From IMG/VR virus record IMGVR_UViG_2869924733_000007, positions 1 through 43,624 of that record: 43,624 bases of DNA; one strand, written 5' to 3'. Origin of the DNA: a virus. Its lineage: Duplodnaviria > Heunggongvirae > Uroviricota > Caudoviricetes. The stretch's first letter is position 1. Every line of letters begins with the position of its first letter. The position numbers were made by a program, and so were the translations under genes. Positions 9,994 through 27,841 of this stretch are shown piece by piece. The notes under the pieces were generated by a model, which did not search any database, was not told the origin of the DNA, and worked only from the letters and a program-made list of their open reading frames with translations.

Positions 9994-10542
9994 TTATTTT
10001 AAAGAAAGTAATTGTTCCACAGTCATATTTTTAATTGCGCCCCGGTTAACAAGAGTCCATCCCTGTTTTTCCAGATAAAACCGGAAAGTCTCCAGGGTAC
10101 AGACCAGTGCGCCATCAGGAACGGTTTCGGTGAATTCGACATTGCCGAATTTGTCGAAGTGAACAACCAGAGTGCGACCATCACCCGGAATCATCTTGTC
10201 AGCAGGTGGGGTGTTATTCTGGCGCAGTTCGGCCTCCATGCGGTCGAACTCAGCAATGTAGGCTTCCTTGAATGCGGCGGCTTTTTTGCCAGTGAAGCCC
10301 ATCACCAGGAAAACGAAGCCGTTTTTGGTGATTTGGTACATTGGGAGTTTGCGCCCGGTTGAGTCGGTGTATTCGCTCGCCTCAAAATTGAGGGCAGTAA
10401 ATTTATCTGAGCATTCAATATTTGCGATGGCACGTAACACATTGTCGTGTCGTTTGTGGAAGAACTCTGCAACCGCAACAGACGTAGTGACAGCGCGACC
10501 GTTTTCTACGGTTACACAAGGGTGAGAAAGGGTAGTAGCCAT
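9994..10542 (-). CDS. rha: Rha-family phage regulatory (antirepressor-like) protein
   Basis: MATTLSHPCVTVENGRAVTTSVAVAEFFHKRHDNVLRAIANI... matches the Rha domain signature; start moved to the ATG at 10542 (GGAGG upstream) because the longer ORF would read through the upstream terminator. Confidence 0.6.
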   Translation of the reverse strand: MATTLSHPCVTVENGRAVTTSVAVAEFFHKRHDNVLRAIANIECSDKFTALNFEASEYTDSTGRKLPMYQITKNGFVFLVMGFTGKKAAAFKEAYIAEFDRMEAELRQNNTPPADKMIPGDGRTLVVHFDKFGNVEFTETVPDGALVCTLETFRFYLEKQGWTLVNRGAIKNMTVEQLLSLK

Positions 10543-10747
10543 GATGGCAGCCTCCGCGATGAATTTGATTAACTCACCACCGGAGGTAGCAATCTCATGG
10601 GTGGTGAGACGTACAGGGTTGCTACAACCGGTCATCACGGAACCCGGCCAGTCTTGCGACTGCCCCGCACGCCCCACCATAATTTGAATGTGGCTGTGCA
10701 TTACGCATAAAAAAACCGCCTGAGCGCGGTTATGCGCCGTGAATGAC
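10543..10747 (-). promoter_or_regulatory. Conserved structured leader with intrinsic terminator upstream of rha (copy A)
   Basis: Terminator accgcgctcaggcggttttttt (10708..10732 on the minus strand), then a conserved tcaccacc...ggtggtga stem; about 75 percent identical to the region upstream of the second antirepressor-like gene. Confidence 0.45.
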
Positions 10748-11231
10748 TTCGGGGTAGCAATCCCGGCACCCGTTTTATGAGGTGCAGGTGCACTATAATT
10801 CCACCCGTTCTGGTTTTCAATAGCTACATTCAACATTTTCTCTTTCCTTTCATCACCGAAGTGAACTTTGTTGATGCGGTGCCTGGTGCCTCCAGGTGAC
10901 GTTAACCAGTTAATAATTAACGCCGGAATAAGGGATTTTCCTTACTGTTTTAACTGTTCCGCGTGCGCTGAGCCGCATTCACCGCATCACAAAATTCACT
11001 TTAAAAAGGGCGGACATCAGCCAGCAATTAAACCGATGCCGCCAACTGGTACTTCACACAGCAATGTCGTTATTTACAACCGGAGGCGCACTCCCACCAT
11101 TTAAATTTAACAGACAAGACCGACTCTTTATGGATACCGGAAATGCGCCTTCGTGTTGTGCCCGGTTTTATTTCACCACCTCCGGGCTTTGGTGGTATCT
11201 TTACTGAAGTTCTCGCACAACCAGTAAGGAA

Positions 11232-11528
11232 ATGAATATGCCAACGTATCTCGCCAGAGTAGAACTATATAATGCTGAGCCAGAGGATTACGAAGGGCTT
11301 CATAAATATATGCTCTCACTAGGATTCAGGAGAACGATCCCCCATGGAGATGGTTCGTATAATCAACTCCCGGACGGAACTTATGTTTCCGAAAAGGGCG
11401 GTGATATTTATCAAATTCGCAGCCAGATATCTGACTATGCAGACCGACTATCCGGGTATCGCGCGTCTGTTTTTGTTTGCGAATTCAGTCAATGCGCATG
11501 GTATTTATACCCCGCCAAGACCCGGTGA
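11232..11528 (+). CDS. Hypothetical protein (98 aa) in the immunity-proximal region
   Basis: ORF MNMPTYLARVELYNAEPEDYEGLHKYMLSLGFRR... preceded by AAGGAA; function not recognised. Confidence 0.4.
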   Translation: MNMPTYLARVELYNAEPEDYEGLHKYMLSLGFRRTIPHGDGSYNQLPDGTYVSEKGGDIYQIRSQISDYADRLSGYRASVFVCEFSQCAWYLYPAKTR

Positions 11529-11708
11529 ATATCCTGCACGGCCTTCTGCTTTGTAGAAGGCTTCTTCGCTATCATAATCGCCAGATTCCAGCGCTTCTTT
11601 AGCCAGCCAGATGCGTGCCCCAGTGCCTGCATTTGGCTCCAGTTGCTGGAGGCGTTTTGCATCTTCTGGGAGTAGAGCGATAACGTGTTTTAATTCTGTC
11701 TCGTTCAT
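11505..11708 (-). CDS. Small Rac-prophage-like protein (YdaF-like, tentative)
   Basis: ORF MNETELKHVIALLPEDAKRLQQLEP...; start ATG at 11708 is 1 nt from the stop of the upstream ORF. Confidence 0.4.
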   Translation of the reverse strand: MNETELKHVIALLPEDAKRLQQLEPNAGTGARIWLAKEALESGDYDSEEAFYKAEGRAGYSPGLGGV

Positions 11709-11709
11709 T

Positions 11710-11865
11710 TTACTCACCTGAATGTCTTCCCAACCAACGACGTGCGCCAGCTTCGGTTTTAAACGTTTTGCTTTTGGTATACGTCATGGCGGTGAATGTG
11801 CCGTCCTGGTTGGGGAACACGCCGTACACCAGAGATTCGTTGTTGCCAAGATCGATAGTATTCAT
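11710..11865 (-). CDS. Small Rac-prophage-like protein (YdaG-like, tentative)
   Basis: MNTIDLGNNESLVYGVFPNQDGTFTAMTYTKSKTFKTEAGARRWLGRHSGE resembles recalled YdaG of Rac. Confidence 0.45.
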   Translation of the reverse strand: MNTIDLGNNESLVYGVFPNQDGTFTAMTYTKSKTFKTEAGARRWLGRHSGE

Positions 11866-11944
11866 GTTGACCCCATTTCCCCTTAACGCCGGGGTAGCGG
11901 AACTGTTTGCTGAGAACACCGTGCGGTGTCTTGATGAATGAAAT

Positions 11945-12000
11945 TTAGAATAACCTAAGGTGGGTGGTCAAGATTTTTATGTAGAAAAACCTAAGTTTTT
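11945..12000. promoter_or_regulatory. Operator-like CCTAAG repeats downstream of the repressor gene
   Basis: aacctaaggtgg at 11952..11963 and aacctaagtttt at 11988..11999; same core as the sites in the repressor/cro-like intergenic region. Confidence 0.3.
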
Positions 12001-12067
12001 TGATGTAAAAAACACAAGTGTTTGAAAGTTTGTGCTTTTTATTACAGGGTGTGGAGAAAAAAGGGGA

Positions 12068-12475
12068 TTATTTGTTTGCGCTTCTTTTGCGAGCTTTGAG
12101 TAGTTCTTCAAAAAGTTTGTTGAAATTTTCAACTCGAGCACGCATCTCTGACAACAGGGCCTTTTGCTCTGACTCAGGCAGTGCGTCGAACAGTTGAAGT
12201 AACTCTTTTTGATCTTCTGTCAGAATGGCTGGCTGATTATCCGGGATCGGTTCGCCTGGTTGTTTATCTTCATCCCCAAAAAGAAGCCAAGTCGGTGAGC
12301 ACTGAAGCGCTTGGCTCAGTGCGAATAATCTTTTCCCCGCCGGCTGTGTTTCATCTCTTTCCCATTGAGAAATTGTTACGTGAGCCACTTTGACCAGCTT
12401 ACCTAATGCGGCCTGAGACAGTTTTAATTTTTTACGCCTATGTAAGAGGCGAGCACCGAAGGTTTCGTTTTTCAT
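12068..12475 (-). CDS. racR: Prophage repressor, XRE-family HTH (RacR-like)
   Basis: 135 aa; HTH LKLSQAALGKLVKVAHVTISQWERDE; divergent from a cro-like gene across a 76-bp operator region. Confidence 0.7.
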   Translation of the reverse strand: MKNETFGARLLHRRKKLKLSQAALGKLVKVAHVTISQWERDETQPAGKRLFALSQALQCSPTWLLFGDEDKQPGEPIPDNQPAILTEDQKELLQLFDALPESEQKALLSEMRARVENFNKLFEELLKARKRSANK

Positions 12476-12551
12476 ATTAGGGAATTCTAATTTTTCTTGA
12501 CTTAGGTTTCTCTACGATCTGGTTTTCTTAGGAAAATCTAAGGAGCTCGAT
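12476..12551. promoter_or_regulatory. Divergent promoter/operator region between the repressor and the cro-like gene
   Basis: TTGACT at 12497..12502; CTTAGG at 12501..12506; palindrome CTTAGGAAAATCTAAGG at 12527..12543 overlapping the ydaS-like RBS. Confidence 0.4.
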
Positions 12552-12779
12552 ATGTTGAAAATTGATGCTATAGCGTTTTTTGGCAGCAAAACAAAGCTTG
12601 CCAATGCCGCAGGAGTTAGGCTGGCAAGCATTGCTGCATGGGGGGAACTGGTTCCTGAAGGTCGCGCGATGCGCCTGCAAGAGGCATCTGGCGGGGAACT
12701 TCAGTACGACCCCAAAGTTTATGACGAATATCGTAAGGCAAAACGACCTGGGAAGGTGATTCATGAAAATCAGGCATGA
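12552..12779 (+). CDS. ydaS: Cro-like HTH protein (YdaS-like)
   Basis: 75 aa, AAGGAG RBS, position and orientation of cro relative to the repressor. Confidence 0.6.
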   Translation: MLKIDAIAFFGSKTKLANAAGVRLASIAAWGELVPEGRAMRLQEASGGELQYDPKVYDEYRKAKRPGKVIHENQA

Positions 12780-13185
12780 GCACATCGAATCAGTGCTGTT
12801 AGCCCTGGCAGCCGAAAAAGGGCAGGCGTGGGTCGCTAACGCAATTACTGAAGAATATCTGCGGCAGGGGGGCGGCGAATTGTCTCTGGTACCAGGCAAG
12901 GACTGGAACAATCAGCAGAATATCTATCACCGTTGGTTGAAAGGTGAAACGAAAGCGCAAAGGGAAAAAATTCAGAAACTGATCCCTGCGGTTCTGGCAA
13001 TTCTTCCGCGTGAGCTGCGTCACCGACTCTGTATCTTCGATACCCTGGAACGCCGTGCATTACTGGCGGCGCAGGAAGCGTTGAGTACGGCAATTGATGC
13101 GCATGATGATGCTGTCCAGGCCGTTTACCGGAAAGCACATTTCAGCGGTGGTGGGTCGCCCGGCGATTCTGTCGTAGTGCATTGA
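12763..13185 (+). CDS. ydaT: YdaT-like protein (cII-position protein of Rac-like prophages)
   Basis: 140 aa, overlaps the end of the ydaS-like gene, same order as Rac racR-ydaS-ydaT. Confidence 0.5.
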   Translation: MKIRHEHIESVLLALAAEKGQAWVANAITEEYLRQGGGELSLVPGKDWNNQQNIYHRWLKGETKAQREKIQKLIPAVLAILPRELRHRLCIFDTLERRALLAAQEALSTAIDAHDDAVQAVYRKAHFSGGGSPGDSVVVH

Positions 13186-13262
13186 TTGAAATTAATCGTG
13201 CCGGATTGTTTTGTTCGGTATCAGTTAAATGTAACGCTGCGAGCGTTACAAGGTGAAAACAA

Positions 13263-14045
13263 ATGGCTTCAAACTGGATAAAGCTCGAGGTTATTACGCC
13301 GGATAAGCCGGAAATATTCAGGCTTGCTGAGATTCTGAATATTGATCCAGATGCCGCATTAGGGAAGGTTATTCGCTTCTGGGCATGGGCGGATCAACAA
13401 ATGATAGACGGTAATGCAGATTGTAACGCTCGCGGCGTTACAAAAAGTGCAATAGATCGCATCACTTTTATGTCTGGTTTTGCTGATGCGTTAATTCAGG
13501 TTGGATGGCTGGTCGAAAATGACGGTGGGCTTTCTCTACCTAACTTTGAACGTCATAACGGAAAAAGCTCTAAAAAACGGGCGGTTACAAACGAGCGAGT
13601 AACAAAAATACGCGAACTGAAACGAAAAGGTAACGTTGCCAGCGTTACACAAACGGATCAAAAAGCGTTACCAGAGGAAGAGGAAGATCTAAATACTGAT
13701 CTCCCCCTAAATCCCCCTCGCCAAAAACGAGCGTCTAAAAAATTCGAGCCGGAGGCTATTGAGCTGCCCGATTGGTTGCCGGAAACACTCTGGCATGAGT
13801 GGGTCCGGTTCAGACAGGCATTGCGAAAACCGATTCGAACGGAGCAGGGCGCTAACGGGGCGATACGGGAACTGGAAAAATTCCGTCAGCAGGGTTTTAC
13901 ACCTGAGCAGGTGATTCGACACAGCATCGCCAATGAATACCAGGGCCTGTTCGCGCCGAAAGGTGTTCGGCCTGAGACGTTGCTCCGACAGGTTAACACC
14001 GTCTCGTTGCCGGACAGTGCGATCCCGCCAGGCTTCAGGGGGTAA
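13263..14045 (+). CDS. Phage replication initiation/organiser protein (YdaU-like)
   Basis: 260 aa, immediately upstream of the DnaC-like loader, as in Rac ydaU-ydaV. Confidence 0.55.
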   Translation: MASNWIKLEVITPDKPEIFRLAEILNIDPDAALGKVIRFWAWADQQMIDGNADCNARGVTKSAIDRITFMSGFADALIQVGWLVENDGGLSLPNFERHNGKSSKKRAVTNERVTKIRELKRKGNVASVTQTDQKALPEEEEDLNTDLPLNPPRQKRASKKFEPEAIELPDWLPETLWHEWVRFRQALRKPIRTEQGANGAIRELEKFRQQGFTPEQVIRHSIANEYQGLFAPKGVRPETLLRQVNTVSLPDSAIPPGFRG

Positions 14046-14051
14046 CGGACC

Positions 14052-14798
14052 ATGAAAAATATTGCGACAGGCGGCGTTCTGGAACGCATCCGCCGACTGA
14101 CCCCGCCACATGTAACCGCCCCATTCAGAACGGTAGCGGAGTGGCGCGAGTGGCAACTTGCTGAAGGCCAGAAACGTAGCGAGGAGATCAACCGCCTGAA
14201 TCGCCAGTTGCGGGTGGAAAAAATTCTGAATCGCTCAGGCATCCAGCCGTTGCACCGTAAATGCTCGTTTGCGAATTACCAGGTGCAGAACGACGGCCAG
14301 CGATACGCGTTAAGCCAGGCGAAATCCATCGCCGATGAACTGATGACCGGGTGTACAAATTTTGCGTTCAGCGGAAAACCTGGTACCGGGAAGAATCACT
14401 TAGCGGCAGCTATCGGGAATCGCCTGCTGAAAGACGGTCAGACAGTGATTGTGGTTACCGTGGCTGATGTTATGAGCGCCCTGCACGCCAGCTATGACGA
14501 CGGGCAGTCAGGCGAAAAATTTTTGCGGGAGCTGTGCGAAGTGGATCTGCTGGTTCTTGATGAAATTGGCATTCAGCGCGAGACGAAAAACGAGCAGGTG
14601 GTGCTGCACCAGATTGTTGATCGCCGGACAGCGTCGATGCGCAGCGTGGGGATGCTGACAAACCTGAACTATGAGGTGATGAAAACATTGCTCGGCGAGC
14701 GGGTGATGGATCGCATGGTCATGAACGGCGGGCGCTGGGTGAATTTTAACTGGGAGAGCTGGCGTCCGAATGTTAGCCATTCGAGGGTTGTTAAGTAG
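14052..14798 (+). CDS. DnaC-like replicative helicase loader (IstB/DnaC AAA+ ATPase)
   Basis: Walker A GKPGTGKNHLAAAIG and Walker B LLVLDEIG. Confidence 0.7.
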   Translation: MKNIATGGVLERIRRLTPPHVTAPFRTVAEWREWQLAEGQKRSEEINRLNRQLRVEKILNRSGIQPLHRKCSFANYQVQNDGQRYALSQAKSIADELMTGCTNFAFSGKPGTGKNHLAAAIGNRLLKDGQTVIVVTVADVMSALHASYDDGQSGEKFLRELCEVDLLVLDEIGIQRETKNEQVVLHQIVDRRTASMRSVGMLTNLNYEVMKTLLGERVMDRMVMNGGRWVNFNWESWRPNVSHSRVVK

Positions 14799-15153
14799 TT
14801 TCAGGAGGATTTATGGCGAAACCTTTTACTCCCGAACAGCGGGAAGAACTGAAGACGCGAATTGTGGAACTCGTGCATCAGGACGGTCGGGTCACGATTC
14901 GGCAGTTGTCCGATGAAACAGGTATCAGTCGTGCGTCTGTCGGTCGCTTATGCATAGAACTGGTCGCAAGTGGTGATGTATATAATTCTGGCTACGGCTT
15001 ATTCCCGTCTGAACAGGCTCGCAAGGACTGGCAAAGCGCCCGCAAAAAACTCTCGAGAGTAAAGGTGAGGAAACCATCTGTGGTTGATCTGGATCTTATC
15101 TGGTCATTACTGAGGTGTACTGGCAATAGCGGACACTACCATTTGTTCTTTTT

Positions 15154-15972
15154 TTAAGCAGCCATCTGATGATATTGTTCCCTGAAGGCTGCCGGGGAGA
15201 TATTCCCCAGACGAGAGTGACGACGCTGACGATTGTAGAAAATCTCAATGTATTCCCGTATTACTGAGATGGCTTCATCCCGGTTATTAAAACGATAGTG
15301 GCTCAGGCTCTCATTTTTCAGCGTTCCCCAGAAGCTTTCCATCGGAGCGTTGTCGTAACAGTTACCTTTACGCGACATTGATGTTTTCAGACCAAACTGC
15401 TCCTGTATGACCCGGTAATCGTATGCGCAGTACTGTGAACCTCGATCAGAGTGGTGGATTAGCCCGGCAGGTGGGCGCTGGCTCCTGAGCGCCATAAACA
15501 GGGCTTTACCTGTCAGCTCTTTTGTCATGCGCTCTCCCATGGCGTAGCCGACAATTTCGCACGTATAAACATCTTTGATGCCAGCGAGGTACAACCATCC
15601 CTCCTGTGTGGCAACATACGTCAGGTCCGCCACCCAGACCTGATTTGGTGCTGTAGGAGCGAACGTCTGGTTCAGCAGATTTGGCGCAACTGGCAGATTG
15701 TGGTTCGGGTTCGTAGTCGCTCTGAACTTGCGTTTCTGCTTACAGCGTAGCCTTAGCTCCTTACGAAGACGTGCCAGTCGGTCACGACCAACGATGATGC
15801 CATTCTCTGCCAGCTCCGTCTGGAGCCGCCGGGTTCCATATGTTTCGCGAGTGCGGATATGTGCCACCTTAATCTCCAGTTTTAGCCGCTCATCACTTTG
15901 TTTTCTGTCTGAGGGTTCATGCTGTACCCAGTTGTAATAACCGCTCCTGGATACACCAAATACCTGACACAT
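15154..15972 (-). CDS. IS600 OrfB
   Basis: 272-aa ORF, one substitution relative to copy 1 (R to W at position 15). Confidence 0.8.
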   Translation of the reverse strand: MCQVFGVSRSGYYNWVQHEPSDRKQSDERLKLEIKVAHIRTRETYGTRRLQTELAENGIIVGRDRLARLRKELRLRCKQKRKFRATTNPNHNLPVAPNLLNQTFAPTAPNQVWVADLTYVATQEGWLYLAGIKDVYTCEIVGYAMGERMTKELTGKALFMALRSQRPPAGLIHHSDRGSQYCAYDYRVIQEQFGLKTSMSRKGNCYDNAPMESFWGTLKNESLSHYRFNNRDEAISVIREYIEIFYNRQRRHSRLGNISPAAFREQYHQMAA

Positions 15973-16049
15973 CGCTTCAATGGGAAATTGTTGTCGCCAT
16001 TGTTCGATTAACGCGTATTTTTCAGCGACTCCTGTGCAAAATACGCTGT

Positions 16050-17270
16050 TGTAGATTCAATCTGTCAATGCAACACCCCTTTCAATTATCTCTTTCGGTG
16101 TTTTGAACTTCAGTGTCTTTCTCGGTCTGTTGTTTAGCTGAGCAGCAACCAGATCTAGTTCATGTTGAGTATATTGGGCAAGACATGTCTTTTTAGGAAA
16201 GTACTGCCGAATTAGCCCATTTGTGTTCTCATTTGTTCCCCGCTGCCAAGGACTCTGAGGATCGCAGAAGTAAACTTTAACGCCGGTGCTGACAGTAAAT
16301 TCTAGATGTCTGGCCAGTTCCATTCCTCTGTCCCATGTCAGTGATTTTCTGAGTTCTGACGGTAAACTCAGGAATTTGTCGGTAAGAGCCTGATTTACTG
16401 AGACAGAATCTTTGCCCCTGAGTCTAAGGATGATCGTATAACGTGATTTTCGGTCTACAAGTGTGGCTATATGAGAGTTTTTTGTACCTGAGACTAAATC
16501 GCCCTCCCAATGCCCCAGAGAGCGTCTGTTATCGATATTTCGGGAACGTTCGTGAATTGGTGTTCCGTTCACTATGTTAATCGTACCTCTTTCGCCTTTG
16601 CGGGTATGACGCCTGCCATGGCGAAGGCTATGCGACCGTCGCAGATGCTGTATATTCAGGTGGTGTAGCGCTTCACGGCTACGAAAGTACAGCGTTTTAT
16701 AAATTGTCTCAGGTGATATTCGCAGCGTTTTTTGACGTGGTTTTGTTCGCCTTAACCATCCTGATATTTGCTCTGGAGACCATTTCATCTCCAGCTTTTC
16801 CAGAACAAGCTTTCGCAATGGTAAATTTTGATCCAGTAAGCACGGTTTTGGCCTTTTCGCCATTCTGTTGGCTCGGTTATTAGCATCAACAGCTTTGTAA
16901 TAGCGTCTGCCCCGATTACGCTGAACTTCACGTGAGATCGTCGAAGGACTGCGATTCAGCGCAGTAGCTATCGCACGAATGCTCATTTTGGCTGACAAAC
17001 CAGCTCGTATCTCCTCGCGCTCAGACAGTGTCAGGTGAGCTACAGCCCGCTTACGCTCATGGGGTTTTATGCCGCCAGTATCCCTTAACATAGTGAAGAT
17101 CGTTCCGGGTTTTGAACCCAGGATATTCGCTATTTCACTGAAGCCTGTTCCGTTCTTCCATAGTTCAAAAACAGAGGCTTTTTCCTCTGCTGTAAATGTT
17201 CGTCTCATTCAAAAAACCTCCGCAACCCCATGTTTTCACATAACTGTTGCGTTGACCAATTGAATCTACA
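16050..17270 (-). mobile_element. IS30 nested in IS600 (copy 2)
   Basis: Same offset inside the composite as copy 1. Confidence 0.8.
16057..17208 (-). CDS. IS30 transposase
   Basis: 383-aa ORF identical to copy 1. Confidence 0.9.
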   Translation of the reverse strand: MRRTFTAEEKASVFELWKNGTGFSEIANILGSKPGTIFTMLRDTGGIKPHERKRAVAHLTLSEREEIRAGLSAKMSIRAIATALNRSPSTISREVQRNRGRRYYKAVDANNRANRMAKRPKPCLLDQNLPLRKLVLEKLEMKWSPEQISGWLRRTKPRQKTLRISPETIYKTLYFRSREALHHLNIQHLRRSHSLRHGRRHTRKGERGTINIVNGTPIHERSRNIDNRRSLGHWEGDLVSGTKNSHIATLVDRKSRYTIILRLRGKDSVSVNQALTDKFLSLPSELRKSLTWDRGMELARHLEFTVSTGVKVYFCDPQSPWQRGTNENTNGLIRQYFPKKTCLAQYTQHELDLVAAQLNNRPRKTLKFKTPKEIIERGVALTD

Positions 17271-17533
17271 GTTGCTTTTTTTAATATATCTCGCTCAAGG
17301 CGAGCTTCATTTAACGCCTTACGCAGTTGCAGAATTTCAGATTCCAGTTCAGCCACCGTGCGGGAACCAGGAGTACCGAGTCCTTTTCTGGCGGCGGTAA
17401 CCCATTGTCCTAAAGTGCCTTCAGGAAGGGATAATCGGGAAGCGCCTTCACTGATCGAAAGTTGATTTTCAAGAACCGTTCTGACAGCTTCGGCTTTGAA
17501 CTCTTTAGAGTAACGTTGGGTTTTTCTGCTCAT
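17271..17533 (-). CDS. IS600 OrfA (3' end displaced by IS30)
   Basis: Identical to copy 1 OrfA. Confidence 0.8.
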
Positions 17534-17782
17534 TATTAGCTCCTTCTGATGCCATTCTATTTCAGGAAGGAGTGTCCGTTAAACTCAGGCTACCTCATAC
17601 CTGACGGAGAAATACATCGTTACGACAGGCGTCATAATATAATTTGTACTGAGTGTCGTAAAAGCGAAGTTATGCAGCGTGTACTGGCTTTCTATCAGGG
17701 TAATTTTCAGGAGGTGGTACTGTGAGTGAAATTAGTTATCAGGCACTAATTGCCGCAGGCATTCGCATCAAAGGAGAGTGAC

Positions 17783-18139
17783 GTGGAAATAAAACCAGAA
17801 GATGAGTTAAGTAATATTGTTTTATTTCCGGTAAAAGAGGATGACCCTCGTAATCAGGTTAATTTTCTTTATGATCCATCGGAAAGACCATATTGCCATC
17901 ACGCCTCTGTACGGGTTGACGAAAAAGAGCGTCAGGTCCGCTGTAAAATCTGCGGTGCGGTTGTGGAGCCGTTTGACTGGATGCTCTCTGTGGCAAAAAG
18001 AGAAACCAGACTGGCAGATGATGTAAGGCTATTGCGCCAGGAGGAACAGGAAAGGCGGAGAAATATAGAAAAGCTGATACAGATTGAGCGTAACGCGAAA
18101 GCGCGGATACGCAGGGCGACAAAATCCAGAACTGAATAA
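17783..18139 (+). CDS. Hypothetical phage protein with Cys/His cluster and basic coiled-coil C-terminus (118 aa from GTG)
   Basis: GTG start with AAAGGAGAG RBS; CHHASVRVDEKERQVRCKICGAV; arginine-rich tail. Confidence 0.4.
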   Translation: MEIKPEDELSNIVLFPVKEDDPRNQVNFLYDPSERPYCHHASVRVDEKERQVRCKICGAVVEPFDWMLSVAKRETRLADDVRLLRQEEQERRRNIEKLIQIERNAKARIRRATKSRTE

Positions 18140-18221
18140 TTAAATTTAGCACTGTTAAAAATTTAATCCTTAACCGGAGGGATTCCTGCACCCTCAAATC
18201 ATCAGGAGGCCGCCCGAAAGG

Positions 18222-19522
18222 CTGAGGAATTCCCAGAAAACGAGACAGACATAGCATTATGTGATCTACTGATTTGTGCCAACAATTCAATGAGATCACT
18301 GCTATGCCTGTTCATAAAGTATGTCAGAATTTCTTCCGGGATGCCTTAGCACCATTTCATCAGTACCGACAAAATGCCCTGATGGATGCCACAGTGGTGT
18401 TAATCAACGGAGCATCTCTGACGCTGACCAGTATCGGACGTTTTTTCCCGGGTAATGCACAAGTTAAGAATAAGAGCAAACGTATTGATCGCCTCATGGG
18501 TAATGAGGCGCTCCATCGCGATATTCCAATGATTTTCAGGAATATCACTTCAATGCTGACACGGCAGTTATCTTTATGTGTAATAGCCGTAGACTGGAGT
18601 GGCTATCCCTCCCAGGAGCATCATGTTCTTCGTGCCAGCCTTCTGTGTGACGGGCGTTCCATTCCGTTATTGAGTAAGGTTGTTCCTTCTGAAAAACAAA
18701 ATAATCCATTGATACAACATGATTTCCTTGATTCCCTTGCTCAATCCCTGCCCCCCGATGCCAGGGTTATTATTGTCACGGATGCTGGATTTCAGAGCGC
18801 ATGGTTTCACCATATTACTTCTCTGGGCTGGGATTTTATTGGTCGGATCAGAAATAACGTTCAGTATTGCCTCGATAACGCGCCTGAAAGATGGTTAAAA
18901 GTGTCGGATAGCCCTGAATGTAAAACACCGGAATATATGGGGGCTGGAAGGCTGGTTAAAGAAAGGAAAAAAAGCATCCGGGGGCATTTTTACACCTATA
19001 AGAAATCGGCAAAAGGGCGAAAAAAGAAACGTTCGAAAGGTCAGAGTGGTTTAAACAAAACAGACAAAGAACAGAGCAAATCAGCAAAAGAAGCCTGGTT
19101 GATCTTCAGCAGTACAAATGACTTCAGAGCGCGAGAAATCATCAAGTTATACAGTCGGCGAATGCAGATAGAGCAAAACTTTCGTGATGAAAAGAACGGG
19201 CGCTTCGGATTTGGTCTTCGGGCCAGCAAAAGTCGTTCAACAGGAAGAATTCTGGTTCTGAGTCTGCTGGCAACGTTGAGCACTATCGTAATGTGGTTAC
19301 TCGGTTATCACGCTGAAAATAAAGGGTTACACCTGAAATATCAGGCTAACAGCATTAAATCCCGGCGGGTTATCTCATATCTGACGTTAGCGAAGAATGT
19401 TCTTCGACACTCGCCACTTATTTTAAGACGAACAGTACTGAGCACAGTTCTAAACCATCTGTCCAGAACCTACCGAAATATGGTGTTGGTTTATTAGCAG
19501 TAATTTTGTGGGGATCCCTCAG
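18222..19522 (+). mobile_element. IS10-like (IS4-family) insertion sequence, about 1.3 kb, with target-site duplication gcccgaaagg
   Basis: Imperfect terminal inverted repeats CTGAGGAATTCCCAGAAAAC / rc CTGAGGGATCCCCACAAAAT resembling IS10 outside ends; flanking duplicate at 18212..18221 and 19523..19532. Confidence 0.65.
18304..19497 (+). CDS. IS4-family (IS10-like) DDE transposase
   Basis: KRIDRLMGN, TDAGFQSAWF...LGWDFIGRIR, and YSRRMQIEQNFRDEK (Y-R-E-K motif) align with recalled IS10 transposase. Confidence 0.7.
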   Translation: MPVHKVCQNFFRDALAPFHQYRQNALMDATVVLINGASLTLTSIGRFFPGNAQVKNKSKRIDRLMGNEALHRDIPMIFRNITSMLTRQLSLCVIAVDWSGYPSQEHHVLRASLLCDGRSIPLLSKVVPSEKQNNPLIQHDFLDSLAQSLPPDARVIIVTDAGFQSAWFHHITSLGWDFIGRIRNNVQYCLDNAPERWLKVSDSPECKTPEYMGAGRLVKERKKSIRGHFYTYKKSAKGRKKKRSKGQSGLNKTDKEQSKSAKEAWLIFSSTNDFRAREIIKLYSRRMQIEQNFRDEKNGRFGFGLRASKSRSTGRILVLSLLATLSTIVMWLLGYHAENKGLHLKYQANSIKSRRVISYLTLAKNVLRHSPLILRRTVLSTVLNHLSRTYRNMVLVY

Positions 19523-19543
19523 GCCCGAAAGGGCGGTAGTGAA

Positions 19544-19726
19544 ATGCGAAAGTTCAAAATTATTATTGAAACGGGAATAGCCGGTGGAGATTTCGAGGAT
19601 GAATTCGAAGTGGATGATGATGCGACGCCTGATGAAATACATGACGAAGCAAAAGATATTTTCTTTAACTACTGCAATTACTCATATCACGAAATAAAAG
19701 ACGAAGAGGAAGAACAAAATGGCTGA
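19544..19726 (+). CDS. Small acidic phage protein (60 aa), nin-region-like
   Basis: ORF MRKFKIIIETGIAGGDFEDEFEVDDD..., highly acidic. Confidence 0.4.
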   Translation: MRKFKIIIETGIAGGDFEDEFEVDDDATPDEIHDEAKDIFFNYCNYSYHEIKDEEEEQNG

Positions 19727-19895
19727 TTTTGGTTCAACTAAATACAACGTCAGTTTTGAAGAATGGCATGAACTGTTAATGGACTATGCAGAGTTACGTG
19801 GTGGCAGTGCTGCTGATGCTGAAGCATGGCGTGATGATTATGAAGCAGGAAAAACTCCGGTCGAAGCATATTGTGATGAGTGGGGCGATGAATGA
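19719..19895 (+). CDS. Small acidic phage protein (58 aa)
   Basis: ORF MADFGSTKYNVSFEEWHELLMDYAELRGGSAADAEAWRDDYEAGKTPVEAYCDEWGDE read directly from the sequence (below the ORF-track size cutoff). Confidence 0.35.
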   Translation: MADFGSTKYNVSFEEWHELLMDYAELRGGSAADAEAWRDDYEAGKTPVEAYCDEWGDE

Positions 19896-20256
19896 GCGAG
19901 ATTAATTATCAGGAAGGGCATGAAACGGCGGGGCAAGCAAAAACAGTGGCATGGCGATATCGCTACGTGAAAAAAAAGGCGTTACGGACTTTCAGGGGAA
20001 GTGGTGGTCTGGTGACTGGAAATATGTACCGAAAAAAGAGGATTGTAACGACAGGCCGAACTATGAAATTCAGGCCTTATTCACTGCCCCGCCAGTCCAA
20101 GTGACATCAGAAGGACTGGTTAAAGCCGTGCGCTTTTATGAACAGGTAAAGCGTGAGAATCCACCAGTCGAAACAGGAGCATGGAAAGACGCTGTTGACT
20201 GGGTACTCAAAGAGGCTTGCTGTGCTGTCATTCTGGGTAAAGCCGACAACCTACTA

Positions 20257-21409
20257 AATAGCTGCGCGGAATAGTAGATCACTTTGAGGGAACTTAGCCC
20301 GGATTGTGCGATCTGATCAATCGCCAAATCAAAACAAATCACCAACCGGACTGAGCAATGCCGATCATAGCACCAATTTCCCGTGACGAACGACGCCTGA
20401 TGCAGAAAGCCATCCATAAAACACACGATAAAAATTATGCCCGCAGACTGACTGCCATGCTGATGCTGCACCGGGGCGACCGTGTCAGCGACGTTGCCAG
20501 AACGCTCTGCTGCGCCCGTTCCTCTGTTGGACGCTGGATTAACTGGTTCACGCAGTCGGGTGTTGAGGGACTGAAATCATTACCTGCCGGGCGTGCCCGT
20601 CGCTGGCCGTTTGAGCATATCTGCACACTGTTACGTGAGCTGGTAAAACATTCTCCCGGCGACTTTGTCTACCAGCGTTCACGCTGGAGTACAGAACTGC
20701 TGGCAATAAAAATCAATGAGATAACCGGTTGCCAGTTAAATGCCGGAACCGTTCGCCGCTGGTTGCCGTCTGCGGGGATTGTGTGGCGAAGGGCTGCGCC
20801 AACTCTGCGTATCCGTGACCCGCATAAAGATGAAAAGATGGCAGCAATCCATAAAGCACTGGACGAATGCAGCGCAGAGCATCCGGTCTTTTATGAAGAT
20901 GAAGTGGATATCCATCTTCATCCCAAAATCGGTGCGGACTGGCAACTGCGCGGACAGCAAAAACGGGTGGTCACGCCGGGACAGAATGAAAAATATTATC
21001 TGGCCGGAGCGCTGCACAGCGGGACAGGTAAAGTCAGCTATGTGGGCGGCAACAGCAAAAGTTCGGCGCTGTTCATCAGCCTGCTGAAGCGGCTTAAAGC
21101 GACATACCGTCGGGCGAAAACCATCACGCTGATCGTGGACAACTACATTATCCACAAAAGCCGGGAAACACAGAGCTGGCTGAAGGAGAACCCGAAGTTC
21201 AGGGGCATTTATCAGCCGGTTTACTCGCCATGGGTGAATCATGTTGAACGGCTATGGCAGGCACTTCACGACACAATAACGCGTAATCATCAGTGCCGCT
21301 CAATGTGGCAACTGTTGAAAAAAGTTCGCCATTTTATGGAAACCGTCAGCCCATTCCCCGGAGGCAAACATGGACTGGCAAAAGTGTAGCGGTATTAAGC
21401 GCAGCTATT
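20257..21409 (+). mobile_element. IS630 copy 2 (1153 bp) at CTAG with TA duplication
   Basis: TA at 20255..20256 and 21410..21411; same terminal repeats as copy 1. Confidence 0.85.
20358..21389 (+). CDS. IS630 transposase
   Basis: 343-aa ORF, one substitution relative to copy 1. Confidence 0.9.
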   Translation: MPIIAPISRDERRLMQKAIHKTHDKNYARRLTAMLMLHRGDRVSDVARTLCCARSSVGRWINWFTQSGVEGLKSLPAGRARRWPFEHICTLLRELVKHSPGDFVYQRSRWSTELLAIKINEITGCQLNAGTVRRWLPSAGIVWRRAAPTLRIRDPHKDEKMAAIHKALDECSAEHPVFYEDEVDIHLHPKIGADWQLRGQQKRVVTPGQNEKYYLAGALHSGTGKVSYVGGNSKSSALFISLLKRLKATYRRAKTITLIVDNYIIHKSRETQSWLKENPKFRGIYQPVYSPWVNHVERLWQALHDTITRNHQCRSMWQLLKKVRHFMETVSPFPGGKHGLAKV

Positions 21410-21560
21410 TAGCATCCAGTAATCAGGTTAGCGAATTAACAATGTGGGTTAAACGACTGGTCAGTCAACTGAAAAAAGCTAAGCCTGACTGCAAATTACC
21501 GGAGAAGGCGATGGATTACCTGAAGCGAAATGGACTGATAAGCGTGGAGGATGTTTTACG

Positions 21561-21644
21561 ATGACCTGGCCTGAAGCATTCACCACGGTAGGAATTGCAA
21601 TGGCGGTGGCGCTGGTTGTGTATTCGATTTGCCGCTGGGGGTAA
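21561..21644 (+). CDS. 27-aa hydrophobic peptide, translationally coupled (ATGA overlap) to the upstream gene
   Basis: MTWPEAFTTVGIAMAVALVVYSICRWG; single predicted transmembrane helix; followed by a hairpin terminator. Confidence 0.3.
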   Translation: MTWPEAFTTVGIAMAVALVVYSICRWG

Positions 21645-21647
21645 GGT

Positions 21648-21670
21648 AAACCAGCCCCGAACGGGCTGGT
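21648..21670. terminator. Hairpin between convergent genes (ccagccccgaacgggctgg)
   Basis: Perfect 8-bp stem with aac loop between the + strand peptide gene and the - strand gene. Confidence 0.4.
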
Positions 21671-21673
21671 AAT

Positions 21674-21961
21674 TTAAAGAGGTAATTTGATGATGGCTGT
21701 CAGTGCGCCAACAGCAACGACGAGCATGCCACCAAATCTGACGGTCAGTTGCAGGCTGAGTTTGTCTATTTTTGCATCAAGGGCTGCAATGTCGTTTTTT
21801 AGTTCAGTTCTGACATCATTTAGGTCGCGCTTTGTGGCGACTTCTGCGGCTTCGTGAGAATCTTTCACTGCGGCAGATATAGCGCGCGCCTGAGCTGCCG
21901 GCATTCCTGCGGCTTCCAAGGTTTCGACGAACTTCAGTGTATCAAAATAGACCTGAGCCAT
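21674..21961 (-). CDS. Coiled-coil plus C-terminal transmembrane protein (DUF1640-like)
   Basis: 95 aa; heptad-rich region followed by hydrophobic tail GGMLVVAVGALTAIIKLPL. Confidence 0.45.
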   Translation of the reverse strand: MAQVYFDTLKFVETLEAAGMPAAQARAISAAVKDSHEAAEVATKRDLNDVRTELKNDIAALDAKIDKLSLQLTVRFGGMLVVAVGALTAIIKLPL

Positions 21962-22137
21962 GTTAAATCCTTCGTTGTTGGGGAATATTGTTAGTTTAGC
22001 CTGTAGTGGCTGTTGACGACAACGTTAATCCGGGGCTATATTCCTCACGCGCCAGCAAAATCTGGCGTCGGGATTGGCGTCCCGGATATCGAAATGAGGT
22101 GTACTGGCAATAGCGGACACTACCATTTGTTCTTTTT

Positions 22138-22956
22138 TTAAGCAGCCATCTGATGATATTGTTCCCTGAAGGCTGCCGGGGAGATATTCCCCAGACGAGA
22201 GTGACGACGCTGACGATTGTAGAAAATCTCAATGTATTCCCGTATTACTGAGATGGCTTCATCCCGGTTATTAAAACGATAGTGGCTCAGGCTCTCATTT
22301 TTCAGCGTTCCCCAGAAGCTTTCCATCGGAGCGTTGTCGTAACAGTTACCTTTACGCGACATTGATGTTTTCAGACCAAACTGCTCCTGTATGACCCGGT
22401 AATCGTATGCGCAGTACTGTGAACCTCGATCAGAGTGGTGGATTAGCCCGGCAGGTGGGCGCTGGCTCCTGAGCGCCATAAACAGGGCTTTACCTGTCAG
22501 CTCTTTTGTCATGCGCTCTCCCATGGCGTAGCCGACAATTTCGCACGTATAAACATCTTTGATGCCAGCGAGGTACAACCATCCCTCCTGTGTGGCAACA
22601 TACGTCAGGTCCGCCACCCAGACCTGATTTGGTGCTGTAGGAGCGAACGTCTGGTTCAGCAGATTTGGCGCAACTGGCAGATTGTGGTTCGGGTTCGTAG
22701 TCGCTCTGAACTTGCGTTTCTGCTTACAGCGTAGCCTTAGCTCCTTACGAAGACGTGCCAGTCGGTCACGACCAACGATGATGCCATTCTCTGCCAGCTC
22801 CGTCTGGAGCCGCCGGGTTCCATATGTTTCGCGAGTGCGGATATGGGCCACCTTAATCTCCAGTTTTAGCCGCTCATCACTTTGTTTTCTGTCTGAGGGT
22901 TCATGCTGTACCCGGTTGTAATAACCGCTCCTGGATACACCAAATACCTGACACAT
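22138..22956 (-). CDS. IS600 OrfB
   Basis: 272-aa ORF identical to copy 1. Confidence 0.8.
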   Translation of the reverse strand: MCQVFGVSRSGYYNRVQHEPSDRKQSDERLKLEIKVAHIRTRETYGTRRLQTELAENGIIVGRDRLARLRKELRLRCKQKRKFRATTNPNHNLPVAPNLLNQTFAPTAPNQVWVADLTYVATQEGWLYLAGIKDVYTCEIVGYAMGERMTKELTGKALFMALRSQRPPAGLIHHSDRGSQYCAYDYRVIQEQFGLKTSMSRKGNCYDNAPMESFWGTLKNESLSHYRFNNRDEAISVIREYIEIFYNRQRRHSRLGNISPAAFREQYHQMAA

Positions 22957-23033
22957 CGCTTCAATGGGAAATTGTTGTCGCCATTGTTCGATTAACGCGT
23001 ATTTTTCAGCGACTCCTGTGCAAAATACGCTGT

Positions 23034-24254
23034 TGTAGATTCAATCTGTCAATGCAACACCCCTTTCAATTATCTCTTTCGGTGTTTTGAACTTCAGTGT
23101 CTTTCTCGGTCTGTTGTTTAGCTGAGCAGCAACCAGATCTAGTTCATGTTGAGTATATTGGGCAAGACATGTCTTTTTAGGAAAGTACTGCCGAATTAGC
23201 CCATTTGTGTTCTCATTTGTTCCCCGCTGCCAAGGACTCTGAGGATCGCAGAAGTAAACTTTAACGCCGGTGCTGACAGTAAATTCTAGATGTCTGGCCA
23301 GTTCCATTCCTCTGTCCCATGTCAGTGATTTTCTGAGTTCTGACGGTAAACTCAGGAATTTGTCGGTAAGAGCCTGATTTACTGAGACAGAATCTTTGCC
23401 CCTGAGTCTAAGGATGATCGTATAACGTGATTTTCGGTCTACAAGTGTGGCTATATGAGAGTTTTTTGTACCTGAGACTAAATCGCCCTCCCAATGCCCC
23501 AGAGAGCGTCTGTTATCGATATTTCGGGAACGTTCGTGAATTGGTGTTCCGTTCACTATGTTAATCGTACCTCTTTCGCCTTTGCGGGTATGACGCCTGC
23601 CATGGCGAAGGCTATGCGACCGTCGCAGATGCTGTATATTCAGGTGGTGTAGCGCTTCACGGCTACGAAAGTACAGCGTTTTATAAATTGTCTCAGGTGA
23701 TATTCGCAGCGTTTTTTGACGTGGTTTTGTTCGCCTTAACCATCCTGATATTTGCTCTGGAGACCATTTCATCTCCAGCTTTTCCAGAACAAGCTTTCGC
23801 AATGGTAAATTTTGATCCAGTAAGCACGGTTTTGGCCTTTTCGCCATTCTGTTGGCTCGGTTATTAGCATCAACAGCTTTGTAATAGCGTCTGCCCCGAT
23901 TACGCTGAACTTCACGTGAGATCGTCGAAGGACTGCGATTCAGCGCAGTAGCTATCGCACGAATGCTCATTTTGGCTGACAAACCAGCTCGTATCTCCTC
24001 GCGCTCAGACAGTGTCAGGTGAGCTACAGCCCGCTTACGCTCATGGGGTTTTATGCCGCCAGTATCCCTTAACATAGTGAAGATCGTTCCGGGTTTTGAA
24101 CCCAGGATATTCGCTATTTCACTGAAGCCTGTTCCGTTCTTCCATAGTTCAAAAACAGAGGCTTTTTCCTCTGCTGTAAATGTTCGTCTCATTCAAAAAA
24201 CCTCCGCAACCCCATGTTTTCACATAACTGTTGCGTTGACCAATTGAATCTACA
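23034..24254 (-). mobile_element. IS30 nested in IS600 (copy 3)
   Basis: Same offset as the other copies. Confidence 0.8.
23041..24192 (-). CDS. IS30 transposase
   Basis: 383-aa ORF identical to the other copies. Confidence 0.9.
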   Translation of the reverse strand: MRRTFTAEEKASVFELWKNGTGFSEIANILGSKPGTIFTMLRDTGGIKPHERKRAVAHLTLSEREEIRAGLSAKMSIRAIATALNRSPSTISREVQRNRGRRYYKAVDANNRANRMAKRPKPCLLDQNLPLRKLVLEKLEMKWSPEQISGWLRRTKPRQKTLRISPETIYKTLYFRSREALHHLNIQHLRRSHSLRHGRRHTRKGERGTINIVNGTPIHERSRNIDNRRSLGHWEGDLVSGTKNSHIATLVDRKSRYTIILRLRGKDSVSVNQALTDKFLSLPSELRKSLTWDRGMELARHLEFTVSTGVKVYFCDPQSPWQRGTNENTNGLIRQYFPKKTCLAQYTQHELDLVAAQLNNRPRKTLKFKTPKEIIERGVALTD

Positions 24255-24517
24255 GTTGCTTTTTTTAATATATCTCGCTCAAGGCGAGCTTCATTTAACG
24301 CCTTACGCAGTTGCAGAATTTCAGATTCCAGTTCAGCCACCGTGCGGGAACCAGGAGTACCGAGTCCTTTTCTGGCGGCGGTAACCCATTGTCCTAAAGT
24401 GCCTTCAGGAAGGGATAATCGGGAAGCGCCTTCACTGATCGAAAGTTGATTTTCAAGAACCGTTCTGACAGCTTCGGCTTTGAACTCTTTAGAGTAACGT
24501 TGGGTTTTTCTGCTCAT
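24255..24517 (-). CDS. IS600 OrfA (3' end displaced by IS30)
   Basis: Identical to copy 1 OrfA. Confidence 0.8.
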
Positions 24518-24584
24518 TATTAGCTCCTTCTGATGCCATTCTATTTCAGGAAGGAGTGTCCGTTAAACTCAGGCTACCTCAAAA

Positions 24585-24775
24585 CGGTGCATAACCGCGC
24601 TGGCGGTTTTTTTATGCGCTAAGCACAGTCACATTCGCGATTTATGGTGGGCTGTGTGGGGGAGTTGAGAGACTCGCCGGATGTTTCGACCGGTTACGCC
24701 AACCCTGCACAGTTCACCACCCAGCGATTGGCGTCGCAGGTGGTGAGTTAAAAACCATCGAAACGCGAGGTCGTT
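24585..24775 (+). promoter_or_regulatory. Conserved structured leader with intrinsic terminator (24591..24614) upstream of the second antirepressor-like gene (copy B)
   Basis: gcataaccgcgctggcggtttttttatgcg plus conserved tcaccacc...ggtggtgagttaa stem; homologous to 10543..10747 in inverted orientation. Confidence 0.45.
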
Positions 24776-25540: not shown

Positions 25541-25617
25541 GGCCCTTTAGCTCAGTTGGTCAGAGCGAGCGACTCATAATCGCCAGGTCGCTGGTTCAAG
25601 TCCAGCAAGGGCCACCA
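25541..25617 (+). tRNA. tRNA with CAT anticodon, Ile2 (lysidine)-like
   Basis: Cloverleaf: acceptor ggccctt/aagggcc, T-arm gctgg-ttcaagt-ccagc, anticodon loop ctCATaa, 3' CCA; resembles recalled ileX/ileY. Confidence 0.7.
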
Positions 25618-25618
25618 A

Positions 25619-25695
25619 CCACCACTAGCTCATCCGGATAGAGCATCAACCTTCTAAGTTGACGGTGCGAGGTTCGAGTCCTCGGTGGTGGGCCA
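25619..25695 (+). tRNA. tRNA-Arg (anticodon TCT)
   Basis: Acceptor ccaccac/gtggtgg, anticodon stem tcaac/gttga with loop ctTCTaa, T-arm cgagg-ttcgagt-cctcg, 3' CCA. Confidence 0.65.
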
Positions 25696-25697
25696 GC

Positions 25698-25773
<76 letters not shown>

Positions 25774-25776
25774 TAT

Positions 25777-25851
<75 letters not shown>

Positions 25852-27704: not shown

Positions 27705-27841
27705 AATCTTAACTACAATATGATTCATTTTGATGATTGTTTCATAAGGAACAGTGAAGTAAGATCTTAGAGGAGTTAAATTTTATACAGTATAATCATA
27801 ATATTGCAGCAAGGTGGTTATAATTGAAAGAATATTTATAT

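Follow-up and report, generated by a model that had tools for sequence, protein, structure and literature searches.

A shared leader of two antirepressor-like prophage genes as a P1 immI-type C4 and IsrK RNA module

The c4 RNA of the immI region of phages P1 and P7 was described by Citron and Schuster in 1990, as cited in PMC2864571 and PMC12197685. The P1 record NC_005856 annotates the promoters P2c4 and P1c4, followed by a1, b1, c4 RNA, a2, b2, icd and ant1/ant2. A second locus of this kind is isrK-orf45-anrP-isrJ of Gifsy-1 in Salmonella, the processed RNA of which is named STnc1160 (Hershko-Shalev et al. 2016, PMC4825925). According to PMC12197685 and PMC4825925, together with the P1 record, C4 is released from its transcript by processing and prevents translation at b2, IsrK ends at a terminator of its own that some transcripts read through, and AnrP promotes prophage induction. 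In Gifsy-1, IsrK provided in trans increased the translation of anrP by a factor of more than 100 (139-fold for a translational and 8-fold for a transcriptional fusion; PMC4825925). Here we analyse a stretch of 43,624 nt of viral DNA (IMG/VR virus record IMGVR_UViG_2869924733_000007, positions 1 to 43,624; from this point on, the window), in which a Rha-family gene and an ORF6N-family gene, both antirepressor-like, share a conserved leader. An earlier note on this DNA, made from the sequence alone, had singled out the two leaders as a dedicated regulatory module for antirepressor expression. That observation is correct, and the element is one already known.

The shared leader and its parts

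Global alignment of positions 10543..10747 (minus strand, copy 1) with 24585..24775 (plus strand, copy 2) yields 143 identities, or 76.1% of ungapped columns and 68.8% of all columns, in line with the identity of about 75% that the earlier note had given for two leaders of about 200 nt. Every common block that it listed could be located in both copies, and a terminator scan places the same intrinsic terminator at the head of each, as claimed. Parts of its description need correcting. The module does not begin at the terminator, which is preceded by a sigma-70-like promoter and an a1/b1 region, and it is not an undescribed element. When the whole window was scanned with Rfam at the curated gathering thresholds (C4 45, isrK 50 and c4-a1b1 46.7 bits), all three families scored above threshold, in an arrangement colinear with P1 immI and Gifsy-1 isrK; the E-values of the two C4 matches (5.6e-14 and 2e-11) speak against a chance resemblance. 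The order is promoter, a1/b1 (IsrK), terminator, C4 with a' and b', a2/b2 and then the antirepressor-like gene. The shared leader is a P1-type immunity module (IsrK, terminator, C4 and the C4 targets), an ordinary member of a known system, and each of the two copies is very probably an immI-type RNA immunity module in its own right. The parts of copy 1 are these:

10792..10820, minus strand: putative promoter for IsrK, C4 and rha, TTGAAA, 17 nt, TATAGT (consensus scan, 10/12)
10709..10785, minus strand: IsrK-like small RNA with 5' hairpin, a1 hairpin, b1 and terminator (RF01394, full length, 64.8 against 50 bits)
10754..10760, minus strand: a1, TTGCTAC, a 7-bp Watson-Crick match to a' of C4
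10737..10746, minus strand: b1, TCATTCACGG, complementary to the b' loop of C4 with one bulge (6-bp contiguous run, -12.8 kcal/mol)
10731..10709, minus strand: intrinsic terminator, AACCGCGCTCAGGCGGTT plus T7 (gcataaccgcgctcaggcggttttttt in the earlier note), the 3' end of IsrK (terminator scan)
10597..10684, minus strand: C4 antisense RNA (RF01695, 79.0 against 45 bits, E=5.6e-14)
10632..10643, minus strand: b' specificity loop of C4, GTTCCGTGATGA, the hairpin 2 loop of the predicted fold
10619..10625, minus strand: a' segment of C4, GTAGCAA, an unpaired internal strand that pairs over 7 bp with a1 and with a2
10586..10592, minus strand: a2 target in the rha leader, TTGCTAC, the complement of a'
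10573..10581, minus strand: conserved arm GGTGGTGAG, able to pair with the C4 3' strand CTCACCACC with a2 in the loop
10552..10562, minus strand: b2 target, TCATCGCGGAG, overlapping the Shine-Dalgarno sequence GGAGG at 10551..10555
9994..10542, minus strand: Rha-family gene, 182 amino acids, the regulated gene of copy 1 (Pfam Phage_pRha, E=1.5e-32)

The promoter lies directly 5' of the start of the isrK match, a1 sits in the loop of a small hairpin, and the terminator coincides exactly with the 3' end of the isrK model match; copy 1 gave no separate RF03163 match. By analogy with P1, the mature C4 of copy 1 is predicted to span about 10678..10599. The blocks of the earlier note can be read off this map. 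Its 'tatggtggg' supplies the 5' strand of the closing stem of C4, 'gaccggtt' the 3' strand of hairpin 2, 'caaccctg' the end of the a' segment together with the first part of the closing-stem 3' strand, and 'tcaccacc' the final part of that strand. The stem tcaccacc/ggtggtgag that the note had drawn upstream of the ribosome-binding site (RBS) is possible as an alternative pairing; the main partner of 'tcaccacc', however, is 'tatggtggg'.

Copy 2 is built in the same way and is interrupted by an insertion sequence (IS):

22013..22042, plus strand: promoter, TTGACG, 18 nt, TATATT (consensus scan, 10/12)
22036..22094, plus strand: a1/b1 region, the 5' part of IsrK, cut within b1 by the IS (c4-a1b1, RF03163, at 22036..22088, 52.9 against 46.7 bits)
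22074..22080, plus strand: a1
22089..22094, plus strand: 5' part of b1
22095..24581, no strand assigned: IS of 2487 bp with ends TGAGGT... like those of IS600, inserted in b1 (repeat finder)
24585..24613, plus strand: last two bases of b1, then the terminator AACCGCGCTGGCGGTT plus T7 at 24593..24613 (terminator scan)
24640..24724, plus strand: C4 antisense RNA (RF01695, 68.7 against 45 bits, E=2e-11)
24681..24689, plus strand: b' of C4, ATGTTTCGA
24696..24702, plus strand: a' of C4, ACGCCAA
24728..24734, plus strand: a2, TTGGCGT
24739..24747, plus strand: GGTGGTGAG arm
24758..24765, plus strand: b2, TCGAAACG, ending 1 nt before the Shine-Dalgarno sequence GAGG (24767..24770)
24644..24751, plus strand: open reading frame (ORF) of 35 codons from an AUG in the 5' arm of C4, corresponding to orf45 of Gifsy-1 and stopping 24 nt before the start codon of the antirepressor-like gene
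24776..25333, plus strand: ORF6N-family antirepressor-like gene, 185 amino acids, the regulated gene of copy 2 (Pfam ORF6N, E=2e-20)

The insertion is flanked on both sides by AAA, the target duplication. Removal of the IS and one AAA joins ...GGATATCGAAA to CGGTGCATAACCGCGCT..., and the product lines up with copy 1 all the way from the promoter to the start codon and matches exactly, over the junction, the uninterrupted public prophage sequences L008, L026 and L054; isrK is complete in L008, the IS-free homologue. The same interrupted form occurs in the public contig L093. In the window, the isrK match of copy 2 starts at 22049 (52.4 bits) and extends 44 nt into the IS (22095-22138), because a T-run at the IS end (ttgttcttttttt) mimics the missing terminator; only the 5' part of the match is authentic, its 3' third being IS sequence. 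A truncated copy 2 IsrK might end at this T-run. The promoter, 5' hairpin, a1 and most of b1 now lie some 2.5 kb from the terminator, C4, a2/b2 and the ORF6N gene, and since the IS has cut the two parts from each other, copy 2 is probably inactive.

The similarity between the copies is confined to non-coding DNA. Leader identity drops to background (about 0.5 in 30-nt windows of a forced global alignment) from about 10570 on, roughly 30 nt upstream of the start codons, and the coding sequences lie outside it. The encoded proteins are unrelated, as had been stated: they belong to different Pfam families (Phage_pRha and ORF6N), and BLASTP of the Rha-family protein against the ORF6N protein returned no alignment. 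The leader also lacks the excess of third-position variability (0.39/0.45/0.41 over the three codon positions) that the Rha coding sequence displays (0.63/0.54/1.05), and its conservation can therefore be taken as non-coding, again in agreement with the earlier note.

Fold, covariation and pairing specificity

Folded alone, the C4 of either copy takes the family fold as its minimum free energy (MFE) structure (z=-4.2 for copy 1 and -4.0 for copy 2), with a 17-bp closing stem, hairpin 1, hairpin 2 with the b' loop, and an unpaired 3' internal strand with a'; the matches cover model positions 1-87. Related DNA was found in 214 phage records. A pattern scan of IMG/VR returned 118 loci, 101 of which contain the module in 48 distinct sequences, and 42 of these 48 form the covariation alignment to which the following figures refer. 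Standard pairs occupy 90.8% of the cells of the proposed structure, as against 37-46% in slid controls, and 17 pairs are changed on both sides; none of 500 shuffles attained any of the observed measures. The closing (outer) stem of C4 is paired in 100% of cells with six double-change pairs, while covariation is present at all five pairs of C4 hairpin 1 and all five of the IsrK 5' hairpin. The terminator helix, at 26.8% paired, was set aside, as its pairs are off register in this set and the value is meaningless; the terminators rest on the terminator scan.

The pairing segments vary in concert. There are 21 distinct a'/b' combinations among the homologues. Every b' has a complementary run of 6-12 nt in its own b1 and b2, with cognate means of 9.2 and 9.9 nt, respectively, and non-cognate means of 5.4 and 6.3 nt; runs between b' and b2 were sought in each sequence separately, column-wise counts having been dropped because differences in loop length shift the register. 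The a' segment, of which four different sequences occur, matches both its cognate a1 and its cognate a2 exactly over 7 nt in all types but one (20 of 21), the exception being L073. Judged from these sequences, such co-variation of a and b is the signature of an antisense system in which these segments carry the specificity. Within the window, cognate complementary runs measure 6-11 bp and cross runs between the copies 3-5 bp. The b':b2 pairing of copy 1 comprises 11 bp when G-U is allowed; in copy 2, a' pairs with a2 over 7 bp and b' with b2 over 7-8 bp. Because the a and b sequences differ between the copies, each C4 should control its own gene only, and the two are predicted from complementarity to be mutually orthogonal, in the manner of P1/P7 heteroimmunity. 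In most homologues, as in the window, b2 lies on the Shine-Dalgarno sequence of the regulated gene.

Two further features concern the unprocessed RNA. The CTCACCACC/GGTGGTGAG stem is 89.7% paired in the 42-sequence set yet nearly invariant, and since it hardly varies the set neither supports nor opposes it. P1, however, carries a compensated stem, CCTGCCACC/GGTAGCAGG, which likewise encloses a2, and this suggests that CTCACCACC/GGTGGTGAG is a real alternative hairpin of the unprocessed transcript. After its acceptor-like stem, C4 has a 3' overhang of CCCA in copy 1 and CCCAG in copy 2, as compared to the ...CCACC 3' end in P1; the window sequence is consistent with excision of C4 by RNase P.

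Proposed regulation and competing explanations

The earlier proposal of a module dedicated to antirepressor expression through pairing with an antisense RNA holds, and the following sequence of events may be envisaged. A constitutive-looking promoter, judged by its sigma-70 consensus, would start a transcript whose first 77 nt correspond to IsrK, with the 5' hairpin, a1 in a hairpin loop and b1, and which would mostly be expected to stop at the intrinsic terminator. Read-through transcripts would contain C4, a tRNA-like RNA of about 80 nt with a' and b' as short single-stranded segments, and RNase P would cut it out as in P1. Its a' and b' would then pair with a2 and b2 just downstream, to which they are complementary by computation. 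With b2 on or directly beside the Shine-Dalgarno sequence of the antirepressor-like gene, translation of that gene would be blocked and the prophage kept quiescent, as repression in P1 would lead one to expect. IsrK, which carries the a and b sequences of the target and should for that reason pair with C4, would act as a decoy, in the read-through RNA as well as in the form of a free small RNA, relieving repression as suggested by Gifsy-1. For the read-through RNA of copy 1, MFE folding (-109.4 kcal/mol, z=-5.2) predicts cis pairing of a1/b1 with a'/b', with the Shine-Dalgarno sequence and AUG of rha hidden in a local hairpin; this predicted fold resembles the inactive 'structure A' of Gifsy-1 (PMC4825925).

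Several observations weigh against transferring the P1 scheme to the window unchanged. C4 is not followed by an icd-like ORF ahead of the regulated gene, from which it is 54 nt away in copy 1 and 51 nt away in copy 2; this is a departure from the P1 prototype, although it falls outside the criteria that define the RNA families. Gifsy-1 orf45, whose 45 codons end in a stop that overlaps the anrP start (AUGA), has not been conserved either: the copy 2 ORF has 35 codons and ends 24 nt upstream, and the AUG of copy 1 reads in frame into rha. Since copy 1 has neither a separate icd nor a stop-bearing orf45, and copy 2 only the 35-codon ORF, the route from C4 binding to the loss of Ant may differ from those in P1 and Gifsy-1. 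The b' loop of copy 1 pairs with b1 through a bulge and with b2 through G-U pairs. That the Rha-family and ORF6N proteins are antirepressors is presumed, in the case of Rha from the family name only. Finally, the Gifsy-1 authors see an mRNA with alternative folds and not a trans-acting C4 repressor, and in their hands extra STnc1160 left IsrK toxicity unrelieved (PMC4825925).

One competing account holds that the copy 1 leader is coding sequence, the true Rha being a protein of 280 amino acids from the ATG at 10836 and the shared similarity a conserved N-terminal domain. One more feature of copy 1 is needed here:

10543..10836, minus strand: open stretch of 98 codons in frame with rha, from ATG 10836 through promoter, IsrK, terminator and C4 into rha

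The rha frame has no stop over this stretch, compared to six and seven in the other two frames, and only 119 of 5000 dinucleotide shuffles (2.4%) leave it open. Almost all Rha-type homologues, among them lineages with other a/b segments and some from other genera, keep it open over 294 nt or more, and indels in these leaders sum to multiples of three. In several lineages (loci L003, L005, L010, L017 and L126 among others), an ATG in frame with rha and equipped with a Shine-Dalgarno sequence, GGAGG or GGAGAG, lies some 15 nt 5' of the -35 element. Database annotation runs the same way, with a 282-amino-acid 'Rha family phage regulatory protein' across the module in RefSeq (L120 2927-3775, NZ_CP065615.1) and a 381-amino-acid 'peptidase' in the GenBank entry of phage Lys8385Vzw (L119 3154-4299, MT225100.1). 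Against this stand the codon-position values given above, with an excess at third positions in the Rha body and none in the leader; a predicted peptide that is not conserved, whereas the RNA pairs are; and the presence of a promoter, an intrinsic terminator and two covarying RNA families within the stretch. Copy 2, P1, Gifsy-1 and other non-Rha loci have in-frame stops, and the frame is broken in L073 and L074. A strong GGAGG Shine-Dalgarno sequence precedes ATG 10542, and residue 19 of the short form is where the Pfam domain begins. We therefore regard a coding leader as quite improbable. A different challenge accepts C4 and has it act mainly by premature termination, either Rho-dependent after loss of translation or in the manner of P4 CI at seqA/seqC. 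C4 and c4-a1b1 share the Rfam clan CL00128, in which P4 CI RNA is presumably also placed. In P1, C4 is reported to repress icd translationally, with transcription then terminating before ant (Biere et al. 1992). The Gifsy-1 authors, for their part, liken their locus to P4 CI and seqA (PMC4825925), and IsrK in trans also raised the transcriptional fusion 8-fold; this is, however, far below the 139-fold translational effect, and both window copies, like most homologues, have b2 on or beside the Shine-Dalgarno sequence of the regulated gene. Termination as the main mode of action is on these grounds unlikely, although RBS block and termination may act in series.

The remaining two accounts are weaker still. 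An undescribed structured leader, such as an attenuator or a protein-binding site, might be suspected from the conserved CTCACCACC/GGTGGTGAG stem next to a terminator, the stem inviting a model of attenuation. Each conserved block, however, is a named part of C4 or IsrK, and the module is homologous to P1 immI and Gifsy-1 isrK, which leaves such a leader very hard to credit. Nor is there much to be said for a larger, recent duplication that included coding sequence, a circumstance that the earlier note had named as one that would undo its proposal. The copies are only 76% identical, the proteins unrelated, the similarity fades before the start codons are reached, and each copy has closer relatives elsewhere than the other copy in the window. 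We found no evidence in favour of a duplication, the many 100% identical repeats of the window being IS copies, and such a duplication is ruled out.

The P1-type module is thus retained. In our view, the RNA function of the leader is established, and the open rha frame reflects either chance together with shared ancestry, or selection for translatability. The coding sequences annotated across the module in L120 and L119, records in which no non-coding RNA is annotated there, are probably systematic mis-annotations. One might still imagine that the Rha-type switch is also translated, in a translation-driven bypass insensitive to C4. Transcription would come from an upstream early promoter, and ribosomes entering at the in-frame start would melt the terminator and the C4 fold and ride over the C4-b2 duplex to yield a long Rha isoform; the peptide itself would be irrelevant, and the open frame alone would be selected. 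We consider this a doubtful, speculative addition. L073 and L074 break the rha frame, as noted, and non-Rha modules are mixed for openness. At some loci, upstream ORFs of up to 1347 nt are in frame with rha; these were rejected as evidence for a fusion protein because their translations look like non-coding sequence or the shadow of another frame, and in L003 there is a plausible gene of 59 amino acids in another frame.

A separate observation concerns the other end of the module. The first 8-10 codons (MATTPTQ.../MTTLPTL...) are common to Rha and to unrelated short proteins downstream of the module, as seen when L041, L062, L074, L136 and L137 are compared with L003 and with 10513-10542 of the window. 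Since unrelated proteins share these codons, the module would seem to have its mosaic boundary within the coding sequence.

Genomic setting and relation to described systems

Copy 1 lies in a Rac-like early (left) region. On its own strand it is preceded by a cI-type repressor gene and followed by homologues of YdaE and of exonuclease VIII (recE); past the repressor gene, the opposite strand carries one gene of the YdaT family and one that is DnaC-like. A reading of the terminator as a Q-dependent late terminator (tR') was dropped, given this early-left setting and the fact that the isrK model ends at the terminator. No Q gene could be recognised directly 5' of copy 2; a divergent ORF of 95 amino acids and IS elements occupy this position. 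Downstream of copy 2, four tRNA genes (Met-CAT, Arg-TCT, Thr-TGT and Gly-TCC; 25541..25851) follow the ORF6N gene and precede genes for holin and lysozyme (26531..27243). ARAGORN reported only these four tRNAs and no tRNA-like remnants in the leader.

The prophage regions are strongly rearranged by IS elements. The 2487-bp element that interrupts copy 2 is one of five 100% identical copies (3839-6325, 15111-17597, 22095-24581, 33880-36366 and 40337-42823; repeat finder), with ORFs of 122 (HTH_Tnp_1), 383 (HTH_38 and rve, IS30-like) and 272 (rve, IS3-family orfB-like) amino acids; it looks like an IS nested in another IS that then spread as a unit. An IS630-family element is present as two inverted identical copies of 1160 bp (1703-2862 and 20253-21412) with a DDE_3 transposase of 343 amino acids, and an IS4-like transposase of 407 amino acids is encoded at 18274..19497. 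Other small RNAs, at 3324-3502, 463-607 and 40141-40323, are RalA, the SraC/RyeA-SdsR/RyeB pair and CssrB; RalA is the antitoxin of RalR and a marker of the Rac prophage, and CssrB is a Shigella chromosomal small RNA. The window further contains an IpaH-type E3 ligase effector gene with LRR and NEL domains (38297-40012, minus strand), a TrkH-family gene like trkG of Rac (27824-29299) and a phage integrase gene (735-1745, minus strand). Taken with CssrB, the IpaH-type, TrkH-family and integrase genes indicate a Shigella chromosome. One region of a Shigella-type chromosome would then hold two C4 switches, predicted to be orthogonal and belonging to different prophage remnants, one of them intact and the other, in all probability, disabled by an IS.

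Among the described systems, P22 sar/ant, the analogy offered in the earlier note, is only loosely comparable. Its small RNA also pairs with the ant translation start and limits synthesis of the antirepressor (PMC12197685), but sar is fully complementary and is made from the opposite strand across the ant RBS, whereas C4 is encoded upstream of its target on the same strand, is part of the same transcript and makes contact by way of two short segments. There is no homology between the two. The CI RNA of P4, the parallel drawn by the Gifsy-1 authors, resembles C4 in being processed from the transcript of its own targets (seqA/seqC), with one target upstream and one downstream; it differs in that it terminates transcription of replication genes, and no match to its family was reported by the Rfam scan of the window.

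The likeness to P1 immI extends over the entire module: promoter, 5' hairpin, a1, b1, terminator-like hairpin (in P1 between b1 and c4), spacer, C4, a2 and b2 at the RBS follow in the same order, and the two window copies, Gifsy-1 and P1 prove colinear when all four are aligned together. On the P1 sequence, Rfam gives 68.8 bits for C4, 51 bits for c4-a1b1 and a sub-threshold 35 bits for isrK. The C4 fold is identical, the 5' arm UUAUGGUGGGGCGUG is the same in copy 1, and specificity resides in a and b as in P1/P7 heteroimmunity. The differences lie downstream and in the host replicon. In P1, b2 masks the RBS of icd, to which ant is coupled, whereas in the window it is on the RBS of the antirepressor-like gene itself; the proteins are of the Rha and ORF6N families instead of Ant1/Ant2; and the modules belong to lambdoid or Rac-like chromosomal prophages, P1 being a plasmid prophage.

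The Gifsy-1 locus gives Rfam matches to c4-a1b1, isrK (79.3 bits) and C4 (69 bits) between Q and STM2616 (AnrP), followed by isrJ and a tRNA gene, and isrK, c4-a1b1 and C4 occur in the window in the same order. The copy 2 protein is 52% identical to AnrP (E=7e-61). Because the tRNA cluster and the holin and lysozyme lysis genes come next, as tRNA-Arg does downstream of anrP, copy 2 is probably the positional counterpart of the Gifsy-1 locus. It differs in its interruption by an IS, in the ORF discussed above and in that the Rfam scan of the window gave no match to isrJ. The correspondence also bears on STnc1160. Gifsy-1 orf45 begins at the AUG within the 5' arm of C4 and extends over C4, a2 and b2; the orf45/STnc1160 region (L122 1525-1770, NC_010392.1) is the one that gives the 69-bit C4 match; and in the published mutants of 'helix b-I', G28A/C162U and G31A/C159U, G28 and G31 fall in a1 and C162 and C159 in a'. 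As this region scores as C4 and the pairing mutants lie in a1 and a', the processed STnc1160 RNA of about 80 nt is, by sequence, C4. The Gifsy-1 paper (PMC4825925) does not cite the P1 c4 work, and the recent review PMC12197685, in the portions that deal with them, treats the two in separate passages. A literature search for a paper equating STnc1160 or orf45 with C4 found none, its results being dominated by plant 'C4-like' papers. The conserved leader should be annotated as IsrK, C4 and their targets, and neither as an unknown RNA nor as the N-terminus of Rha. Beyond this correction of annotation, the value of the comparison is that it links the descriptions of P1 c4 and Gifsy-1 IsrK, two literatures that appear to describe one mechanism.

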